In this document: piece by piece, positions 30,103-64,000 of the stretch
Layout of the letters: each line of letters opens with the position of its first letter
Numbering within the stretch: the stretch's first letter is position 1
From: a virus
Lineage: Duplodnaviria > Heunggongvirae > Uroviricota > Caudoviricetes
Length of the DNA stretch: 64,000 bases
Strand: one strand, 5' to 3'
Virus record (IMG/VR): IMGVR_UViG_2571042390_000001
Notes under the pieces: generated by a model
Databases searched by the model: none
Seen by the model: only the letters and a program-made list of their open reading frames with translations
What the model was told of the DNA's origin: nothing
Program-made: the position numbers and the translations under genes

Positions 30103-30678
30103 ATGTTAATGGCGAACGATAACGCATATACAGAAGAAGATCTCATTTTGAGTGACTTCATAGGGAAGCGTGAACGCTGGACCCAAAAGCGAGAGGAAAT
30201 TTACGCCTCATTAGTTCGCAAAGGCGTCAATATCGAAACCGCACAGAGCGGCGATATGACAGTGGTAAGCGTTGGATTGCACGGTGTAAGCGTGTCAGCA
30301 ATCAATCATGAGCCATACGTTGCGTTATCCGAGTCAATGGTAAGGTTAGTTAAGTTCCTGAAATACACAGAAGCGAATAATGTAATCATTGGCAAAAAGA
30401 ATATCCCTTTTTCCTCGGCTTTTTACTGGATGATGAAAGGGCTTGATGCCCGGCGGACATCATGGCCCAAAGGGAGCTATATATCGATGTTCCGTGGCAG
30501 TATTGGCAGCAAAGAAAAGCTCTTCGAATTCTTGCCGGAAGAGGCATTCGATATTGTGGAAGGGTGCGATGTGATGGTGATGCCTCGCCTGGTAATGATG
30601 AATGGGGATTTACAGGCGCAGACAGACTGGTTTGCAACTGGTGTGGATATTATCGCGACTGACTGGGAGGCTTTCTGA
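30103..30678 (+). CDS. Hypothetical protein with C-terminal DUF2829-like domain
   Basis: 191 aa; C-terminal part FSSAFYWMMKGLDARRTSWPKG ... QTDWFATGVDIIATDWEAF. Confidence 0.55.
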   Translation: MLMANDNAYTEEDLILSDFIGKRERWTQKREEIYASLVRKGVNIETAQSGDMTVVSVGLHGVSVSAINHEPYVALSESMVRLVKFLKYTEANNVIIGKKNIPFSSAFYWMMKGLDARRTSWPKGSYISMFRGSIGSKEKLFEFLPEEAFDIVEGCDVMVMPRLVMMNGDLQAQTDWFATGVDIIATDWEAF

Positions 30679-31070
30679 TGTACGGGACTACCAAATTAAG
30701 CACTCAACAGGCCACCAATATGGAGTGGTCTATCGCTAACTGTAAGATCGAGTCATGCAATGCCACGCGTACTGATGTGGGCCATAAAAGCACTATAACA
30801 GGCTATCTAGTAATGACCACCAGGGGGATAAGGGTTAGATTTCGCTGGAAAGCAGAGCAAGTAACCCCATTCAGAGAGCCATCAATGCCGCTGCAGGTTG
30901 AGCAGGATTATCTATGTTTACCAGAAATAGATGGAGGAATGCTGGTGGAGTCTGATGGTAGTAAGGCTGATTTTGAAGCCAATTTGAAGCTGGCACAGGC
31001 CGTAATCAATAGTTATCGCGGACAGTGGATCGCAAAAGTGAAACATGTTGTTCGTTTGTCTCGCTGGTAG
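30678..31070 (+). CDS. Hypothetical protein
   Basis: 130 aa; ATGA overlap with upstream gene. Confidence 0.5.
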   Translation: MYGTTKLSTQQATNMEWSIANCKIESCNATRTDVGHKSTITGYLVMTTRGIRVRFRWKAEQVTPFREPSMPLQVEQDYLCLPEIDGGMLVESDGSKADFEANLKLAQAVINSYRGQWIAKVKHVVRLSRW

Positions 31071-31178: not shown

Positions 31179-31571
31179 ATGGAACAAATCAGCAGCGCAG
31201 AAATTGCGGATATCATGATCAGGGCTGACTGCTATCTGACAGTCACTGAAATTACCACTCTCGCCAAAGAAAAATACCCTCATCTCCATGTTTCACGAGT
31301 AAGTGTAACTAACATCATTCGTCATTTTGTTCGTTCAAGCAGGGCAATCTGTGAGCTTGATGATCGTGTTTACCCACGAAAATACTGGTTGCATGGCCTG
31401 AACGGATATCAGTTCAAGGTGCGTGGGCGAACCCCTGAATATGGCAGTTTACTGGTTAAAAACTGTAGCAGGAAATCAGTCGAACAGGCGCGAAAAGAGC
31501 AACGAGAGCTGGTGGACATGGCGAATAAGCTGTGGAATGCCGCCGTTAAAAAGCGTGGTGTTGCTTTATGA
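31179..31571 (+). CDS. Hypothetical protein in the position P1 uses for the late-promoter activator Lpa
   Basis: 130 aa; operator-like motif upstream; immediately precedes pacA; homology not verified. Confidence 0.4.
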   Translation: MEQISSAEIADIMIRADCYLTVTEITTLAKEKYPHLHVSRVSVTNIIRHFVRSSRAICELDDRVYPRKYWLHGLNGYQFKVRGRTPEYGSLLVKNCSRKSVEQARKEQRELVDMANKLWNAAVKKRGVAL

Positions 31572-32932
31572 GTCTGGTTAATTGGGAGGAGCACCGCGCC
31601 CGCTTTATAGCGTTGCGTGAAGAAAAAGGGATCACTGTAAAGGAATACTGTGAGGAGCATGGCCTTAGCTTCAATACAGCCAGAAAGCATCTCAATATGA
31701 AAAAAAATGAGGTGCGGTCGCAGGTAAAGACAACAAAAAAAAGCACCAAATCACCTGAAAAAAAACGGGCGGGAAGAGCAACAAAAAAGCTGGAAGAGGG
31801 TGCAGAAAAAACAAAATTTACAGAAATTGACAATTCGCAGGGCGCAGGTTCTTTCCGAAGTATGCCGAGAAAGAAAACTTCGGATCATGAAAATAATTCA
31901 AATAATAACAATGAGATAAAAGAATCTGTCAGGAGATCATTGCGCGAAAAAATGGCGAAAATGATCCCCGAAGAAGATAAAAACGCCCCAAAAATTGAGG
32001 GATCTTCTGCAATGATCCCTGACGGTGCTGTGCAGCGTGCCACATTGCCAACTACGAATGTGGCTCGCGATATGATGAAGAACGGCGCAGAAGAACACCT
32101 GCGGTTAGCAATTCAAATGGCGCAAGAGCGCGCACTTCAGTATCAAAGCATTGTTGATCAGGAGGCCGAACGTCTACAGGCGGAAATAGACGCCTTGGGC
32201 GATAAAGAGCCAGAAGGAATGCACCCTGGGCAGCGCCTTCTCGGTCTAATCAGTGACGCGGCCTACTACATGAATGATTTTATCAGTAGGTTGGCAGCTA
32301 TATATCAGTCCGAACAAAAGCTGCGACAGGGGGATGAAAAGCTTCGTCAGAGCGCTCGCCAGCAAGCATTCAAAGAGGCTGAGGCCAGAGAAAAACTCGA
32401 ATTAGCACGCCTACAGGCCGAACAGCGTGGCAAAGAGATTGAATATCGCATTGGCGCTGACGCACGCGCAGCCAGAGTTATCGCCGCCGCTATACGTATG
32501 CGTGAGCGCGAGGAACTGGATGATATCGGTGTTGCTGAATACATCGAGCGCCAGGGTGTCAGCGTCCCGGCTATCCTCGCGGCGCGCGCGGCGAAAGCTA
32601 TCACTCTTCTCGAACCACCTGTTTCTGACGTCAATGATGTTGATGATGAACAGCTGGACAAAGAGGCAAGGGAGTTTGCAACGCTTCAGGCTAACCATCC
32701 GCAATGGCTGGCAGAGCGCCGGGCGGATGTGGCAACCATTGTTGAAGAATTGGGGTGCGGAGATTACGACCGCAATGGCGAGCGTAAAGCTGGAGAATTC
32801 GAGGCCAACGACGAAGAGCTGGATATTGACCCTTCGGCAACGGCTGAAATTTACGGTGATTATGATGCATCTGATGCAGGGTATGACGCCGGAGATGATG
32901 ATATCGCGATAGAACCGCCGGAGGATGATTAA
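31568..32932 (+). CDS. pacA: Terminase small subunit, PacA-like
   Basis: 454 aa; N-terminus MSLVNWEEHRARFIALREEKGITVKEYCEEHGLSFNTARKHL resembles my recollection of P1 PacA; acidic C-terminus; overlaps the large subunit gene. Confidence 0.65.
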   Translation: MSLVNWEEHRARFIALREEKGITVKEYCEEHGLSFNTARKHLNMKKNEVRSQVKTTKKSTKSPEKKRAGRATKKLEEGAEKTKFTEIDNSQGAGSFRSMPRKKTSDHENNSNNNNEIKESVRRSLREKMAKMIPEEDKNAPKIEGSSAMIPDGAVQRATLPTTNVARDMMKNGAEEHLRLAIQMAQERALQYQSIVDQEAERLQAEIDALGDKEPEGMHPGQRLLGLISDAAYYMNDFISRLAAIYQSEQKLRQGDEKLRQSARQQAFKEAEAREKLELARLQAEQRGKEIEYRIGADARAARVIAAAIRMREREELDDIGVAEYIERQGVSVPAILAARAAKAITLLEPPVSDVNDVDDEQLDKEAREFATLQANHPQWLAERRADVATIVEELGCGDYDRNGERKAGEFEANDEELDIDPSATAEIYGDYDASDAGYDAGDDDIAIEPPEDD

Positions 32933-34440
32933 TGGCTGGCGGGCGCAAGATTAAATGCGTCACCAGCGATCCACGCTGGCGCGATATGGTAATCAAATAC
33001 CGCTACAACTTTACCCAGGCTGTAGTCGATATTTTTGGGATGTTCCCCTCCCACCAGCAGCAGCAGATCATTCAGTCAGTGCAGGAAACGGGGAGTAGGA
33101 CGACCGTCACGTCCGGACACGGAACGGGGAAGTCGTCCCTTACCGCGATGTTGCTGTTGATTTTTATGATCCTGTTCCCCGATGCCCGTGTCATCATTGT
33201 TGCTAACAAGATAGGCCAGGTAAAAACAGGCGTATTCAAATACGTTAAACAGTATTGGGCGAATGCAGTTAAGCGTCATGGGTGGTTGCAGACCTATTTT
33301 GTCCTCTCTGACACCATGTTTTATGAGCGCTCCCGTAAGGGGATTTGGGAAGTTCTCTGCAAAGGTTATCGACTCGGCAACGAAGAAGCGCTGGCGGGGG
33401 AACACGCGGCACATTTGCTTCTAATTCTGGATGAAGCATCTGGTATATCTGATAAGGCGATCGGCGTAATGACCGGTGCTCTTACTGAAGAAGATAACCG
33501 GATGTTGATGCTATCCCAGCCAACAAGGCCAAGTGGTTATTTCTACGATTCGCACCATTCTCGAGCAAAAACCCCAGACAACCCGAAAGGGATCTGGACA
33601 GCAATTGTTCTTAACTCGGAAGAATCACCGTTCGTCACACCACAATTCATCAAGGAGAAGCTTCTGGAATATGGTGGGCGCGATTCTATTGAGTACATGG
33701 TCAAGGTGCTTGGTCAGTTCCCACGAGAAATTAACGGCTATTTGCTTGGTCGTGATGAATGCGATCGCTCTGCTCGCCGCAAGGTGTTGTTGGAGAAAAA
33801 CTGGGGATGGGTGGCAACGGCTGACGTTGGTAATGGGCGAGATAAGTCGGTCCTCAACATCTGCAAGGTATCAGGTCACAGGGATAAGCGGCGCGTTGTT
33901 AACTTTAAGGTAATGGAGATGCCTGGCACTATGGACCCATTGGCCTTTGCTGACTTCATATATAACGAATGTACGCCGGAAAAATACCCGAATATAACAA
34001 TCGCGGTTGATGCTGATGGTTTTGGTTCTGATACGTGTGCGCAGTTGGTGCGTCGTGGTGCGAACCCGGTACGTATTCGGTGGGGAAAACCCATGTTTGC
34101 GAACAAAGACAGGGAGCGATTTGTTAATCAGCGTGCCTACGCAAATATTATGGCGCGAGATGCCATAAAGTCAGGGCGTATGCGGATAGACAGTGACCCT
34201 AAAACGGCAGAGCAAGCGTCAAAAATCCCCTTTTTACTGAATGAAGAAGGGAAAATGGCGATGATGCGCAAAGAGCACATGCGGCAAAAGCTAAACATCA
34301 AATCGCCTGACCGATGGGATACCTACTGCTTCACTATGCTGGTGGACTATGTGCCTGCTAATGAAGATATTGGTGCCGAAATGGCAACTTTCCGAGATCA
34401 GGTTCTGGCGGATATCGAAATGCCGGATCTGGATATATAA
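32932..34440 (+). CDS. pacB: Terminase large subunit, PacB-like
   Basis: 502 aa; Walker A TSGHGTGKSS, Walker B LLLILDEASG, C-terminal nuclease-type region with conserved acidic residues. Confidence 0.8.
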   Translation: MAGGRKIKCVTSDPRWRDMVIKYRYNFTQAVVDIFGMFPSHQQQQIIQSVQETGSRTTVTSGHGTGKSSLTAMLLLIFMILFPDARVIIVANKIGQVKTGVFKYVKQYWANAVKRHGWLQTYFVLSDTMFYERSRKGIWEVLCKGYRLGNEEALAGEHAAHLLLILDEASGISDKAIGVMTGALTEEDNRMLMLSQPTRPSGYFYDSHHSRAKTPDNPKGIWTAIVLNSEESPFVTPQFIKEKLLEYGGRDSIEYMVKVLGQFPREINGYLLGRDECDRSARRKVLLEKNWGWVATADVGNGRDKSVLNICKVSGHRDKRRVVNFKVMEMPGTMDPLAFADFIYNECTPEKYPNITIAVDADGFGSDTCAQLVRRGANPVRIRWGKPMFANKDRERFVNQRAYANIMARDAIKSGRMRIDSDPKTAEQASKIPFLLNEEGKMAMMRKEHMRQKLNIKSPDRWDTYCFTMLVDYVPANEDIGAEMATFRDQVLADIEMPDLDI

Positions 34441-34467: not shown

Positions 34468-35505
34468 TTACCAGAGCTTCGCGGCGTACTGCGTTTGGGG
34501 GAATGTGTATCCGTAACGTTCTTCGATTGCTTTGCCGTATTTTTTACGAGCTTCATTCAGTTTTATGCCGGTCAGGTCGTCTCCAGAGGCCATCATTACG
34601 TCTAACAATTCCAGATCCATTTTATCCAGCCTTGCCATTGCTTCACGTGATGTACGTATCTTACGCTCAATGATATGGCGAATAGCCGGATCGGCATCCT
34701 CCAGCATCTTAGCGGATTTCTGCTTAAGGCTTTCATTGCGAATATCGATGTTCCTTAAGATGTACGACTTCGCAACGTAGCTTGGCTGGTGTTTTTCCAG
34801 GTCACGAACACGATATAAGTTAAAATCGCCGAGAAGGCTGCAAGGTACCGATTCGACGCCAGAATAAATTGTAATGCTCCGGCGCTCACCAACATTATTG
34901 ACAACGGGGATCGTTGTCTTCGGTAGTCTTGCGAAAACCAATGCGCCATGTGCGCCAACTCTAAAGCGAGAAAGGGCATTGCTGCCTTCGATGTTTGTTG
35001 TCAGCACAACATCTGTATATGCCTCTTTACGCGCCCGGTAGATCTCGCCTTCAGGCTCAGCTTCAAAGAAGCGCTGTTCTTCTTCAAGAGCACCTACGAT
35101 TTGAGAAAAAACCCTATTTTTCAGGCTTTTCTTTATGATTTTGTCGTATTTTTTGAGCAATTGTTCACGTGTAAATGTACGTGTTGTTGTAGCGCTTTGC
35201 ACAACAACATGCGTGCTTTGATTGGTGTCCTCAATGATGAATGGGATCGGAGAATATACAGACTCAACAATGTTCGACGCTTTGCCGTCGGCATCGCGGC
35301 ACATGTCAACGAAGGCTTTCCATTCAGCAAGACATTTTTCAGCTTCTTCTAATATGTTTTGGTCATGCGTTAATGCAACATGGCGGAATTCCTCGCCAGC
35401 ATAACTGGTATCATGGAAAACAGAGTTTGCGACCACCAGCTCTTTCCACCGTTCAGCGGTTTGCAGGAACCGTTTGTACTCTTTCTCGATCGACTTCTTA
35501 CTCAT
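34468..35505 (-). CDS. Putative immunity repressor (C1-like by position and operator overlap); function unverified
   Basis: 345 aa; lies between pacB and the lox-type site as c1 does in P1; an operator-like motif sits 17 bp upstream of its start. Confidence 0.35.
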   Translation of the reverse strand: MSKKSIEKEYKRFLQTAERWKELVVANSVFHDTSYAGEEFRHVALTHDQNILEEAEKCLAEWKAFVDMCRDADGKASNIVESVYSPIPFIIEDTNQSTHVVVQSATTTRTFTREQLLKKYDKIIKKSLKNRVFSQIVGALEEEQRFFEAEPEGEIYRARKEAYTDVVLTTNIEGSNALSRFRVGAHGALVFARLPKTTIPVVNNVGERRSITIYSGVESVPCSLLGDFNLYRVRDLEKHQPSYVAKSYILRNIDIRNESLKQKSAKMLEDADPAIRHIIERKIRTSREAMARLDKMDLELLDVMMASGDDLTGIKLNEARKKYGKAIEERYGYTFPQTQYAAKLW

Positions 35506-35715: not shown

Positions 35716-35747
35716 TAACTTTAAATAATTGGCATTATTTAAAGTTA
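35716..35747. other. rox recombination site (Dre target): 14-bp inverted repeats around a 4-bp spacer
   Basis: TAACTTTAAATAAT-TGGC-ATTATTTAAAGTTA; reverse complement matches the rox sequence as I recall it (TAACTTTAAATAATGCCAATTATTTAAAGTTA); 150 bp upstream of the recombinase gene. Confidence 0.85.
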
Positions 35748-57500: not shown

Positions 57501-58124
57501 TTATTGCCCGTATTTTTTACACCATTGCTCTGCCATTTGTTTGGCTAAAGGCCCGGCTACTGCACTGTATTCTGCTGTTTTACTTTGCACACATGAAGCA
57601 GATGGTTTTTTATTTCGCTGCTCGGTTAGTTTGCGCTCATAAGCCATCATGCTATCGAACCCGGCAATATCACTTTGGCGAAGCATTCCCTTTTTAACCA
57701 AAAATTGCTGCCCCTCGGGCACCAGCGCAAGCATAAAAAGTGGTTGTAATAACTCACCTAATCCTTGCTGGCGATACACTTCGAATTGCTGCCATCCCTG
57801 ACTTAATCTGGAAAGAGTATCTTTGGTTGAATAACCTGTTTTTGTTATAGCTTTGTCCGTCAGATATGCTGTATATGCAAAAACGCAAAAGTCAGTTTTA
57901 CCAATAAACTGAGTTCCAACAGGCCGTAATGGAATGCCCTCTCTCTTGCAAAAGTCCATAATTGCCGCTTGTGAATGATCCCCACCAGCGTTATTCATAA
58001 CCTGCTGCCCTGCCCTGAATTGTGCAGGTAACGCAGTTGCATTGGCTGTATTAACAGATACGCATCCCAACATAGCCGCGAGCGCGGTCCCTAAAACCCT
58101 TAACTTCACTACACCGTCCTTCAT
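57501..58124 (-). CDS. Secreted protein or lipoprotein
   Basis: 207 aa; N-terminal hydrophobic segment with possible lipobox (AAMLGC). Confidence 0.5.
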   Translation of the reverse strand: MKDGVVKLRVLGTALAAMLGCVSVNTANATALPAQFRAGQQVMNNAGGDHSQAAIMDFCKREGIPLRPVGTQFIGKTDFCVFAYTAYLTDKAITKTGYSTKDTLSRLSQGWQQFEVYRQQGLGELLQPLFMLALVPEGQQFLVKKGMLRQSDIAGFDSMMAYERKLTEQRNKKPSASCVQSKTAEYSAVAGPLAKQMAEQWCKKYGQ

Positions 58125-61606: not shown

Positions 61607-62389
61607 TGATAAATCAGTTTGCATTTCAGAATACAATCGAGAAATATCAGAGAACAATTCATTAAAATCAGTACTATAGAATGATGTTTTCTTTATTGCT
61701 GCAATAAAATCATATAAATCCTGCGGAGTTTCAATTTTACATTTCCTATTCTCATACAGAGTAGGCAAAATGTGAATATTTTTATATGTAAGCGTTATGG
61801 CATCATCAAACCTTTCTTTCATTTTATCATATTTTTCTTTTTCATCTTCTATTTTGTTTAAAATGTCTTCCAGTTCTTTTTTTCTTTCATCCAGCTTTTG
61901 TTGGCTATAGCTAGCCTCTATTTCACGCTCAGCTCTTTTCTTGGCTCTTTTTGCTAATTTCTCTTTCTCGTTTTCGTCTGTTTTATTGTCCAAAATTTTT
62001 ATTTTATAGTACACCTTAGTTGTAATGCAAGATACCGCAAGTGTAATTACTGGTGCCACAATCGACGCAATCACACCATAGAAAAACGGCAAGAAAAAGT
62101 GGGCAAACCAAGGAGGTAAAATCTCGCCATCAAGAAATTGTATTTTTTCACCGGTAAAAACTATTGACAGAGTATATAGAACATCTTCTTTTGATTTGAA
62201 CAAAATTAATATATCTCTCCAGTTAACAACCAGAAAAGATATAAAAATATATGCAAAAAGCTTATTAAATACTTTATCTTTTATAACATATTCCATTGTA
62301 TTCTTGACGGAATCAACAACGGACTCATTTTCTTTATCTGATTCAGATGTCTTCTTTACTGATGAATCTGTACTCATATATGCTACCAA
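61598..62389 (-). CDS. AT-rich membrane protein with C-terminal charged coiled coil
   Basis: 263 aa; hydrophobic segments (FAYIFISFLVVNW, VIASIVAPVITLAVSCI) then KEKLAKRAKKRAEREIE-type coiled coil; much lower GC than surroundings. Confidence 0.55.
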   Translation of the reverse strand: MVAYMSTDSSVKKTSESDKENESVVDSVKNTMEYVIKDKVFNKLFAYIFISFLVVNWRDILILFKSKEDVLYTLSIVFTGEKIQFLDGEILPPWFAHFFLPFFYGVIASIVAPVITLAVSCITTKVYYKIKILDNKTDENEKEKLAKRAKKRAEREIEASYSQQKLDERKKELEDILNKIEDEKEKYDKMKERFDDAITLTYKNIHILPTLYENRKCKIETPQDLYDFIAAIKKTSFYSTDFNELFSDISRLYSEMQTDLSEK

Positions 62390-62440
62390 ATTTCTAGTAT
62401 CTATTTTTTATAAAAACAGCGGTCATCCAGACCGCAAAAC

Positions 62441-62800
62441 TCAAACGCCAACCAGGCTTTCCAGTGGAATACCAAACTGGGCATGTAAACGACGAATCAT
62501 AGGTAACGTCAAATTTCGTGTCCCATTAAGCACTTCGTAAACACGGTTTGACTTACCAATTGCCGGTTCCAGATCCTTCACGGTCAGTCCTTGCAGTTCC
62601 ATACGGAATTTAATGGCCTCAATAGGTGATGGTGGCTCAATTGGGTAATGTTTTTTCTCGTACTCCTCAATGAGAAGACACATAACCTCAAAGAAATCAC
62701 CTTCCGGAGTATTCATTTCCGGTTCGTTATCGAACATCGGTTCGACCGCACGCAGTGCGGCCTCATAATCTTGTTCTGTACGGATAGGTTTAATGTTCAT
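62441..62800 (-). CDS. HigA-like HTH protein
   Basis: 119 aa; C-terminal HTH GLTVKDLEPAIGKSNRVYEVLNGTRNLTLPMIRRLHAQFGI; upstream of the membrane protein gene in the same orientation. Confidence 0.6.
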   Translation of the reverse strand: MNIKPIRTEQDYEAALRAVEPMFDNEPEMNTPEGDFFEVMCLLIEEYEKKHYPIEPPSPIEAIKFRMELQGLTVKDLEPAIGKSNRVYEVLNGTRNLTLPMIRRLHAQFGIPLESLVGV

Positions 62801-62814
62801 TAATTACAAAGGAA

Positions 62815-62841
62815 AGCCCACTTGCTAAGTGGGCTTTTTGT
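62815..62841. terminator. Hairpin separating the two minus-strand units
   Basis: agcccac-ttgctaa-gtgggct followed by TTTTT on the plus strand. Confidence 0.45.
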
Positions 62842-62856
62842 ATGTGTTTTACTATA

Positions 62857-63195
62857 TCAGGCTGCTTTTTTATTCAGGTTCCGCTGAGAAATAAATTTTT
62901 CAGCAGTATTGATACGACTTAACTCTTCCTGAACGCGCATATCATTTTCGACTTCCCACAGATCTACTGCGGTCTGAAGATTAATCCAAAAATCTACAGA
63001 AGTATCGAATGCTTTTGCCAGGCGATATGCCATATCCATCGTTAGCTTACGATTATTATTAACAAGAGCACTTACGGTGTTACGATGAACATGAAGTATT
63101 TCTGCTAACTCGTTGATCTTCAGCTCTAACGGCTCCAGGTATTCGTACAGCAGGATATCACCTACGGTCGTCGGTTTTCTGGTTGCCTGTTTCAT
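62857..63195 (-). CDS. higA: HigA-type HTH antitoxin
   Basis: 112 aa; HTH ELAEILHVHRNTVSALVNNNRKLTMDMAYRL. Confidence 0.75.
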   Translation of the reverse strand: MKQATRKPTTVGDILLYEYLEPLELKINELAEILHVHRNTVSALVNNNRKLTMDMAYRLAKAFDTSVDFWINLQTAVDLWEVENDMRVQEELSRINTAEKFISQRNLNKKAA

Positions 63196-63265
63196 TTTTT
63201 GCCCTTACTAGCGTGCGTATTAAGTGGACTCTGGTCAGAACCCGGTCCGTAACCGGGTATCTGTT

Positions 63266-63568
63266 TTAGTATTTGTGAGGGTCGAGATACAAGTCCTCGG
63301 CCTTTCCGTTAACCCACTTAAAAATTAACCTATATTGCTTATTCACCCTTACTGATGAATAGCCATTTAGCTTCCCTGACAGTTCCTCATACCGATTACC
63401 TGGTGGTGATCTTAAATCCTTACAGGTAGTTGCGGCATTGATAATGTCCAACTTCCGTGACAATGTCATATGAATATCAGGAGGTATCTTTCTATGTGGT
63501 GTTGAAAATTCAAAAAAATCATCAAGCCACGCATCCCTGAAATCCTTTATGTTAATTTTTTTGGTCAT
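63266..63568 (-). CDS. higB: HigB/RelE-type toxin
   Basis: 100 aa; sits immediately upstream of the HTH antitoxin in toxin-first order. Confidence 0.65.
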   Translation of the reverse strand: MTKKINIKDFRDAWLDDFFEFSTPHRKIPPDIHMTLSRKLDIINAATTCKDLRSPPGNRYEELSGKLNGYSSVRVNKQYRLIFKWVNGKAEDLYLDPHKY

Positions 63569-63791
63569 TAGTCATTTGATCCTCCGTGATGATTACCGAA
63601 TGCCATAACTATAGCGCACCGTTGCACTGTGCGCAAGTGCATTTTATGAATTCCCCCTCCTTCATCCAAAATCACAATCTCCCGAAAATCTTCCTTTCGA
63701 TACCTGACAGATCGACCTTTGAGGATGCTTATGGGCCGTTTTGACGAATGGTTTGCTGACGATGCAAACCTGGCAAGTAAGGAGTCAGAAC

Positions 63792-63980
63792 ATGACAGCA
63801 CGCAGAGAGAAACGCCAGCGCCGATTGAAGCGAATGCAGGAGGCGCGCCGGAACATGGCAATACCGGTTCGGATTCATTCAGCATTCTGGAAGAGCAACC
63901 CGCCGCCAAAGCTGATAGCCATGATAATTTTGCTGATAGCAACGGTGGCCTTACTCCGGATGCTGGCGAATCAGATATAG
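63792..63980 (+). CDS. Possible small tail-anchored membrane protein
   Basis: 62 aa; RBS aaggag 7 nt upstream; basic N-terminus (TARREKRQRRLKRMQEARR) and hydrophobic C-terminus (LIAMIILLIATVALL). Confidence 0.3.
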   Translation: MTARREKRQRRLKRMQEARRNMAIPVRIHSAFWKSNPPPKLIAMIILLIATVALLRMLANQI

Positions 63981-64000
63981 CCATACTTCCATCTTCCCTG

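Follow-up and report, generated by a model that had tools for sequence, protein, structure and literature searches.

The pacA locus and its GATC sites

This analysis concerns a cluster of GATC sequences located within pacA, the gene for the small terminase (pac-recognition) subunit, in the tailed-phage record IMGVR_UViG_2571042390_000001 of IMG/VR. The whole stretch of 64,000 nucleotides (nt) that was analysed is called the window below. The window is a D6-type plasmid prophage related to P1; between positions 31000 and 35000, its identity to Escherichia phage D6, itself such a prophage, is 98.9%. The D6 records AY753669 and MF356679 give the annotated order lpa, pacA, pacB, c1, rox, and dre, and the open reading frames (ORFs) of the window agree with it. 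A pac annotation is absent from both records, and full-text literature searches returned no relevant description of a D6 pac site; an earlier printed discussion of the D6 pac region is possible. The features of the locus are as follows.

31179-31571: lpa, matching the Pfam family BPP1_LPA (E = 5e-57)
31568-32932, + strand: pacA, small terminase or pac-recognition subunit of 454 amino acids, assigned from the ORF and the D6 annotation
31883-32017: candidate pac core of 135 bp with five conserved GATC motif copies (pacA nt 316-450, codons 106-150)
32932-34440, + strand: pacB, large terminase (ATPase/nuclease) of 502 amino acids and partner of PacA, annotated as pacB in D6
34468-35505, - strand: c1, a window ORF matching that of D6
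35716-35747, - strand: rox, the site of the Dre recombinase, an exact 32-bp match annotated in AY753669

Both terminase subunits are homologous to those of P1. The original prediction, which was made from the letters of the window, had spoken of a pacA-like gene, and this is borne out by the D6 annotation, by the profile match to PHROG 1711 'terminase' (E = 2.8e-184), and by a full-length alignment with P1 PacA (21% identity, E = 6e-10); matches to the small-terminase PHROGs 370 and 51 were also found. PacB is 56% identical to P1 PacB over 488 amino acids and matches PHROG 2, the terminase large subunit (E = 8e-40). The two genes are intact and adjoin the GATC cluster. The N-terminus of PacA (approximately residues 1-50) is a helix-turn-helix, the core of which is invariant at W6, H9, N36, T37, and R39 in the family alignment; the Pfam HTH_23 match to residues 7-42 is weak. 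It is followed by a fast-evolving basic linker, and the GATC cluster lies in the part of the gene that encodes this linker. A profile search of the PDB using the PacA alignment gave no useful match. Genes identical or nearly identical to this pacA were found in 120 plasmid records (E. coli, Salmonella, Shigella, and Enterobacter), and tblastn of PacA against the phage collection returned the D6 records only.

GATC occurs at 31883, 31935, 31963, 32001, 32014, and 32156. Five of these sites fall within 135 bp and all six within 277 bp, so that the positions and both spans given in the original prediction are exact. The plus-strand hexamers are, in order, GGATCA, AGATCA, TGATCC, GGATCT, TGATCC, and TGATCA, in accordance with the description of several sites as lying in a TGATC(A/C) context. 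When both strands are counted, TGATC is present in five of the six sites, while the P1 hexamer TGATC(A/G) is read on the plus strand only at the sixth. This is the tightest cluster of four, five, and six GATCs in the window, and likewise in the whole 91-kb D6 genome.

Conservation of the clustered motifs

For the comparison, we used the pacA genes of E. coli plasmids (L034-L037; 93-95% identity), E. marmotae (L005; 75%), Shigella dysenteriae (L007; 75%), E. fergusonii (L008; 69-70%), and Enterobacter hormaechei (L009), whose PacA shows 56% amino acid identity and whose pacA is not alignable by blastn in its 5' half. The four lineages of the conservation tests are the window/D6 type, L005, L007, and L008, with pairwise nucleotide identities of about 69-75%. 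The Salmonella plasmid pSa1423-90k (L004), with 18 in-frame stops in pacA, was left out of these tests. This locus (NZ_MK356557.1, 2501-3866) carries many single-base indels, and its annotation is split into short hypothetical proteins; the stops and indels look like uncorrected long-read sequencing error rather than the marks of a pseudogene.

The five clustered GATCs are conserved far better than their surroundings. They occupy gene positions 316, 368, 396, 434, and 447 in L005, L007, and L008 alike, with no intervening indels. GATC is kept in all four lineages at five of the five sites inside the cluster, as compared with 2 of the 26 sites outside it in lpa-pacA-pacB (Fisher p = 1.2e-4). 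The third-codon positions within the five GATCs are invariant in seven of seven cases, as compared with 38 of 116 elsewhere in the linker (p = 6e-4). The motifs stand out as invariant islands, namely, CGGATCA, GATCATT, AAATGATCCC, GATC, and AATGATCCC, within a linker having 48% invariant columns. Among the 93-95% relatives, up to 17 substitutions were found in gene nt 281-480, and none of them falls in the motifs. Furthermore, the Enterobacter homologue L009 retains the motif and the 28-bp inner GATC-to-GATC spacing, which is therefore common to five lineages. The individual elements are listed below.

31881-31887, - strand: copy 1, partial, CGGATCA (reverse complement of TGATCCG); codon phase 0, Asp-His
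31932-31941, - strand: copy 2, GGAGATCATT (reverse complement of AATGATCTCC); codon phase 1; relatives have GGGATCATT
31939-31962: A-rich spacer of 24 bp between copies 2 and 3, holding the shared dyad centre at about 31950
31959-31968, + strand: copy 3, AAATGATCCC; codon phase 2, Met-Ile-Pro
31998-32006, - strand: copy 4, degenerate in the window, GGGATCTTC; codon phase 1
32011-32019, + strand: copy 5, AATGATCCC; codon phase 2, Met-Ile-Pro
32156-32159: sixth GATC, TGATCA, probably not part of the element
31630-31633: single conserved GATC, GGGATCAC, where the helix-turn-helix is encoded, invariant in the four D6-like lineages

The CGGATCA run of copy 1 is invariant in four lineages and absent from the Enterobacter homologue. 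Copies 2 and 3 are inverted repeats of each other, and the GATCATT of copy 2 is unchanged in five lineages, the Enterobacter homologue among them. The 10-nt run of copy 3 is also invariant in five lineages and is among the longest invariant runs of pacA. Copy 5 repeats copy 3 directly at a spacing of 51 bp, and nine of its nucleotides in a row are invariant in five lineages. As for the exact 9-mer AATGATCCC, the D6 genome has it only as copies 3 and 5 of the cluster, and the window contains one further copy, at 57974. Copy 4 appears in the relatives as GGGATCATT (E. marmotae) or AGAGATCAT (Shigella and E. fergusonii); four lineages keep its GATC, although the encoded residue switches between Gly and Arg. 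The sixth GATC at 32156 behaves differently. It becomes GACC or GACA in L005, L007, and L008 and is retained only in the close relatives and L009. The original prediction had counted this site as a member of the cluster; since only one of the four divergent homologues has it, it was dropped from the element.

The five GATCs occupy codon phases 0, 1, 2, 1, and 2 and include both motif orientations. The minus-strand copies 2 and 4 read (Gly/Arg)-Ser, and their GATC is retained despite the residue change. Thus, one DNA word is kept in two orientations, in three frames, and with varying residues, which indicates a constraint on the DNA and not on the protein. The conserved repeat unit is the asymmetric (A)ATGATCC(C), with the core AATGATCCC, in both orientations.

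P1 pac and the TGATC arrays of the PacA family

The P1 record NC_005856 places the pac cleavage at pacA nt 276-285 and an IHF site next to it. Four TGATCA-type hexamers are located at pacA nt 195-232 and three at nt 325-351, in accordance with the known P1 pac site of seven TGATCA/G hexamers, an IHF site, and methylation-gated cleavage (PMC10028697). Comparable arrays were found throughout the PacA family. The more distant PacA homologues (20-36% amino acid identity) came from plasmids and genome contigs of Citrobacter, Leclercia, Xenorhabdus, Pantoea, Serratia, Rosenbergiella, and Buttiauxella. Over pacA nt 130-480 of 22 loci from at least 10 genera, 148 GATCs were observed, while 30.8 were expected from the flanks. 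Nearly all of them are TGATC, and every PacA homologue examined has such clusters, with 5-9 TGATC sites per pacA in the other genera, Enterobacter included. We are not aware of any earlier account of the arrays in these P1-related phage-plasmids.

In all lineages outside the D6 group, the arrays are bipartite, with a left array at nt 136-255 and a right array at approximately nt 286-470. The left array is often strictly 12-bp periodic, as in Pantoea, where the sites are found at 154, 166, 178, 190, 202, and 214. The periodic left arrays translate in frame as tetrapeptide repeats of the form xxDH or xxDQ, such as SDQAGDHNHDHSSDHASDHQNDH in Pantoea and IDHSNDQHAGDH in P1. Arrays of this kind were located in L013 (1654-1741), L019, L023, L024, L026, and P1 (L003, 2724-2762), and they show that the DNA signal of the left array dictates the linker peptide of PacA. 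The Enterobacter homologue L009 carries the D6-type motif in a left trio (157, 169, and 181) and also in a right cluster (380-471) that aligns with the window cluster. Buttiauxella (L022) also uses TGATCC, and both homologues combine TGATCC-type motifs with two arms. The D6 type is connected to the P1 site through such intermediate homologues, whose arrays lie in the same region of pacA. From the alignment of the L009 right cluster and the family-wide occurrence of the arrays, the window cluster is the homologue of the right arm of this family feature, which in P1 is the mapped pac site.

A second GATC array with 12-14 bp spacing was found at the pacA loci adjacent to parM (Citrobacter, Leclercia, Pantoea, and 'Acinetobacter'). 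It lies between parM and pacA, 60-125 bp ahead of the start of pacA, at approximately 1376-1441 in L010, 1406-1442 in L011, and 1427-1439 in L013 and L015. A Dam-sensitive promoter and a partition site are possible roles for it. Such an array is absent upstream of the window pacA.

The D6-type cluster and P1 pac are alike in several respects. Both lie inside pacA, where the gene encodes the linker that follows the N-terminal helix-turn-helix; both consist of repeats that carry a Dam GATC and share the core ATGATC, arranged on two sides of a centre. In both phages, the order is pacA, pacB, c1, and a recombination site, with lox or rox about 4 kb downstream, and a Dam-family methylase is phage-encoded. 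More precisely, lox is 4.0 kb from the P1 pac cleavage site, and rox is 3.8 kb downstream of the GATC cluster. On the other hand, the P1 units are the palindromic or near-palindromic TGATC(A/G), whereas the D6-type unit is asymmetric and occurs in both orientations. The P1 site measures 161-162 bp and has arms of four and three hexamers on either side of an approximately 95-bp cleavage region; the D6-type cluster measures 135 bp, has a central spacer of 24 bp, and lies about 100 nt deeper in pacA (nt 316-450 versus nt 195-351). A conserved IHF consensus was not found in the D6 type, and its PacA is just 21% identical to that of P1. The cluster thus shows neither the TGATC(A/G) hexamer nor the 4+3 bipartite layout of P1, and of the analogy drawn in the original prediction, the position inside pacA and the GATC repeats hold while the hexamer differs. 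Among the homologues, Enterobacter L009 and Buttiauxella L022 share the TGATCC-type motif with the window; all the homologues outside the D6 group are bipartite, whereas the D6 group has one cluster. P22 (gene 3), SPP1 (gene 1), and Sf6 reportedly also have their pac sites inside the small-terminase gene and package by the headful, but their sites are said to lack Dam units and their small terminases to be unrelated in sequence to PacA. Methylation gating is not known for these pac sites.

The arrangement of the copies gives the D6-type cluster a symmetry of its own. By gene position, the sites are centred at nt 317.5 (-), 369.5 (-), 397.5 (+), and 448.5 (+), with the fifth site (-) at 435.5. 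The midpoint of the inner pair (copies 2 and 3) is 383.5 and that of the outer pair (copies 1 and 5) is 383.0, corresponding to about 31950 in the window; this coincidence of two midpoints is not statistically strong alone. The largest gap inside the cluster is 52 bp from start to start. Since P1 is cut midway between its arms, the spacer at 31939-31962 is proposed as the most likely cleavage region. The segment 31870-32030 is able to form long hairpins or cruciforms, because the motif copies are present in both orientations.

An IHF consensus match, a perfect TATCAAAGCATTG at 32141-32153, lies 120 bp downstream of the cluster, immediately next to the sixth GATC. The window has nine such perfect matches; this one is not conserved in L005, L007, L008, and L009 and is probably fortuitous.

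With regard to methylation, the D6 methyltransferase D6_63 is an N6-adenine enzyme of the D12 class, the Dam family (PF02086, E = 1.9e-56). The retention of GATC in every motif copy over long divergence fits a role of methylation. No window ORF of at least 150 amino acids carries the (D/N/S)PP(Y/F/W) motif. Judging from synteny, the end of the window (approximately 63000-64000, set against D6 61635-63213) falls just short of D6_63. It probably includes part of D6_64, a 'putative DNA-cytosine methylase' with no Pfam match at E ≤ 0.001.

A candidate headful packaging site and its alternatives

On the sequence comparisons above, the five-motif cluster at 31883-32017 is quite probably the core of a D6-type pac site, at which headful packaging starts. 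The original prediction of a pac site is supported in this form because of the comparative conservation, rather than the GATC density; it is changed in that the sites number five and not six, the motif is another, and they form one cluster. The binding of PacA, the position of the cut, the dependence on methylation, and the direction of packaging are what we infer from the analogy with P1. In such a mechanism, the N-terminal helix-turn-helix of PacA would bind the repeated (A)ATGATCC(C) motifs within its own gene, two copies facing one way (31883 and 31935) and two the opposite way (31963 and 32014) about a centre near 31950, with the fifth at 32001. The PacA-PacB complex would assemble on the motif array and cut nearby. 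Because every motif carries a Dam site, the methylation state probably gates the cutting, with the adenine methylated by the host Dam or by the D12-class methylase of the phage; such gating would confine cleavage to late infection, as in P1. Packaging would then proceed through pacB, c1, and rox, and the first headful would have rox in its terminal redundancy, which may allow circularisation mediated by Dre.

Several points weigh against this interpretation. The first is the density of the sites. The window contains 229 GATCs in total, one per 279 bp, where dinucleotide-preserving shuffles expect 251; they are accordingly not over-represented. The original prediction was to be given up if the density did not exceed the background, and on this the data are divided: a five-site span of at most 135 bp arises in 23% of random placements of 229 sites in 64 kb (31% in the same test on the D6 genome), while synonymous-codon shuffles of pacA yield at least five sites in the cluster stretch in 1.6% of trials and an equally tight span anywhere in the gene in 2%. 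The density by itself does not reach significance, and the case for a pac site is not built on it. The second is the motif: there are five conserved D6-type copies as compared with seven hexamers in P1, and none of them is TGATCA or TGATCG on either strand. The third is a lack of independence among the lineages: with 88% identity between L007 and L008, effectively three independent lineages plus L009 were compared. The fourth is the missing left array: no GATC is found at pacA nt 130-310 in the D6 group (the window, D6, L005, L007, and L008), whereas all the other lineages examined have a left array, the closest outgroup L009 (nt 157-181) among them. Sternberg and Coulby are said to have found in 1987 that P1 needs both arms, and the cluster may thus be just a part of the pac site. 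The fifth is that no match to the IHF consensus WATCAANNNNTTR, with one mismatch allowed, was found within 31883-32017, a consensus scan being a weak test for IHF sites. The last is that D6_63 lies past the window end, as judged from synteny, and its GATC specificity is assumed from its family.

Other conserved sequences were found upstream of the cluster. The lone GATC at 31630 is possibly an outlying motif copy, but conservation for the encoded Gly-Ile-Thr is more likely; as a 'left arm' it is doubtful, L009 encoding Gly-Ile-Thr by GGCATTAC with no GATC. The 32-nt run AGAAAGCATCTCAATATGAAAAAAAATGAGGT at 31682-31713 is invariant in the four D6-like lineages and is the longest such run in pacA. 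Synonymous positions are among its invariant letters, as is an A8 tract, and the encoded peptide, ARKHLNMKKNEV, is the last part of the helix-turn-helix. In L009 the run is less well conserved; it could be a signal at the DNA or RNA level or a part of pac. The block CAAAATTTACAGAAATTGACAAT at 31811-31835 is kept in all D6-like lineages, the Enterobacter homologue included, while the surrounding linker is variable. It sits 50-70 nt upstream of the first clustered GATC and contains the hexamers TTTACA and TTGACA, for which the scan gave no full promoter. It could be an extra pac element that replaces the missing left arm.

As an alternative to a pac core, the cluster may be an element responsive to Dam or SeqA, that is, a promoter or operator or a SeqA patch that times pacB, with the true pac elsewhere. 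Clustered GATCs are classic targets of SeqA and of Dam regulation, P1 also employs GATC-bearing promoters and origins, and the D6 lineage is without the second arm expected of a P1-type pac. Nevertheless, a scan of both strands gave no sigma-70-like promoter within or close to the cluster, and no Rfam match at E ≤ 1 was obtained; the homologous P1 feature is a mapped cleavage site; and the D6 genome has no other motif cluster able to serve as pac. We therefore regard this explanation as improbable.

Equally improbable is that the cluster is a decayed remnant of a P1-type right arm, used only for PacA binding or autoregulation, with packaging initiated otherwise or at an unrecognised site. The distribution of the left arm, which L009 and all other lineages have and the D6 group has not, is in its favour, as are the degenerate copy 4 of the window and the conserved upstream blocks at 31682-31713 and 31811-31835, which are possible additional or alternative elements. 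Against it, the five sites and their spacing are strictly kept over long divergence, which points to an exacting function; D6, whose pacA and pacB are intact, is viable as a phage; and the remaining sites make a symmetric two-arm layout of their own around 31950.

The GATCs may also be incidental to a conserved secondary structure, either a DNA cruciform or a hairpin of the pacA mRNA. The 161-nt segment folds far better than shuffled sequences (z = -4.2), and RNAalifold gives 10 pairs changed on both sides. Copies 2 and 5 both have ATTGC/GCAAT in the window lineage and ATTTGC/GCAAAT in the others; this concerted one-base difference of the arms from the 75% relatives could reflect selection for pairing, gene conversion, or chance. 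However, the lowest-energy partner of copy 2 is copy 5 in the window and copy 3 in L005 and L007. The minimum-energy pairings thus differ among the lineages, so that no single structure is conserved, and the complementarity arises because one motif is present in two orientations. In addition, the invariant cores coincide with the GATC motifs and not with whole stems, and the distant homologues have direct 12-bp arrays without hairpin potential. A structure with incidental GATCs is thus a very unlikely explanation, although a cruciform could be part of the pac mechanism rather than its rival.

Least likely of all, and by our estimate very nearly negligible, is a chance cluster whose GATCs are by-products of PacA linker residues with no DNA function: the random-placement figure, the lack of enrichment of AATGATCCC with at most one mismatch in the window (20 observed, 16.8 expected), and the double occurrence of ATG-ATC-CC as Met-Ile-Pro, a conceivable peptide motif, would agree with it, but the five sites are invariant at 70-75% identity where 24 of the 26 other GATCs in lpa-pacA-pacB turn over, their synonymous positions, three codon phases, and two orientations are kept while the residues at copies 2 and 4 switch, and homologues with unalignable linkers still have TGATC arrays there.

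Apart from the packaging genes, the ORF at 30103-30678 (D6 orf6), two genes upstream of lpa, was found to have a C-terminal Tad2-like Pfam domain (E = 9.5e-10). Tad2 is Thoeris anti-defence 2, and the RefSeq name of the D6 orf6 homologues is 'MW1434 family type I TA system toxin'. This gene may be an anti-defence gene of D6-like phage-plasmids.

The finding that a P1 relative probably has a P1-like Dam-site pac inside pacA is an expected one and leaves the general picture unchanged; the variant with one arm and oriented motifs, together with the family series, is useful rather than surprising. In itself, the cluster is a clear case of a DNA signal overriding protein-coding freedom within a gene. 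The natural variants of pac differ in motif, copy number, spacing, and number of arms and may tell which P1 features are essential. A more tentative idea, which we consider possible though not the likelier outcome, is that the D6 lineage rebuilt a P1-type pac into a compact, dyad-symmetric site of one cluster with an oriented 9-10 bp motif (AAATGATCCC) and lost the 12-bp-periodic left array, which all other PacA lineages retain. If so, the geometry of PacA recognition and pacase assembly would be different: PacA might bind inverted repeats as head-to-head dimers, or a cruciform might form, without the 160-bp loop bent by IHF, and the PacA family would be a natural series on the co-evolution of a terminase and the recognition site embedded in its gene. 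Deletion of pac for non-propagating helpers has a precedent in P1 (PMC10028697) and would become feasible with a known D6-type pac. E. coli, Salmonella, and Shigella commonly carry D6-like phage-plasmids, and knowledge of their pac would also allow the prediction of transduced DNA and the design of D6-based phagemids orthogonal to P1 vectors.

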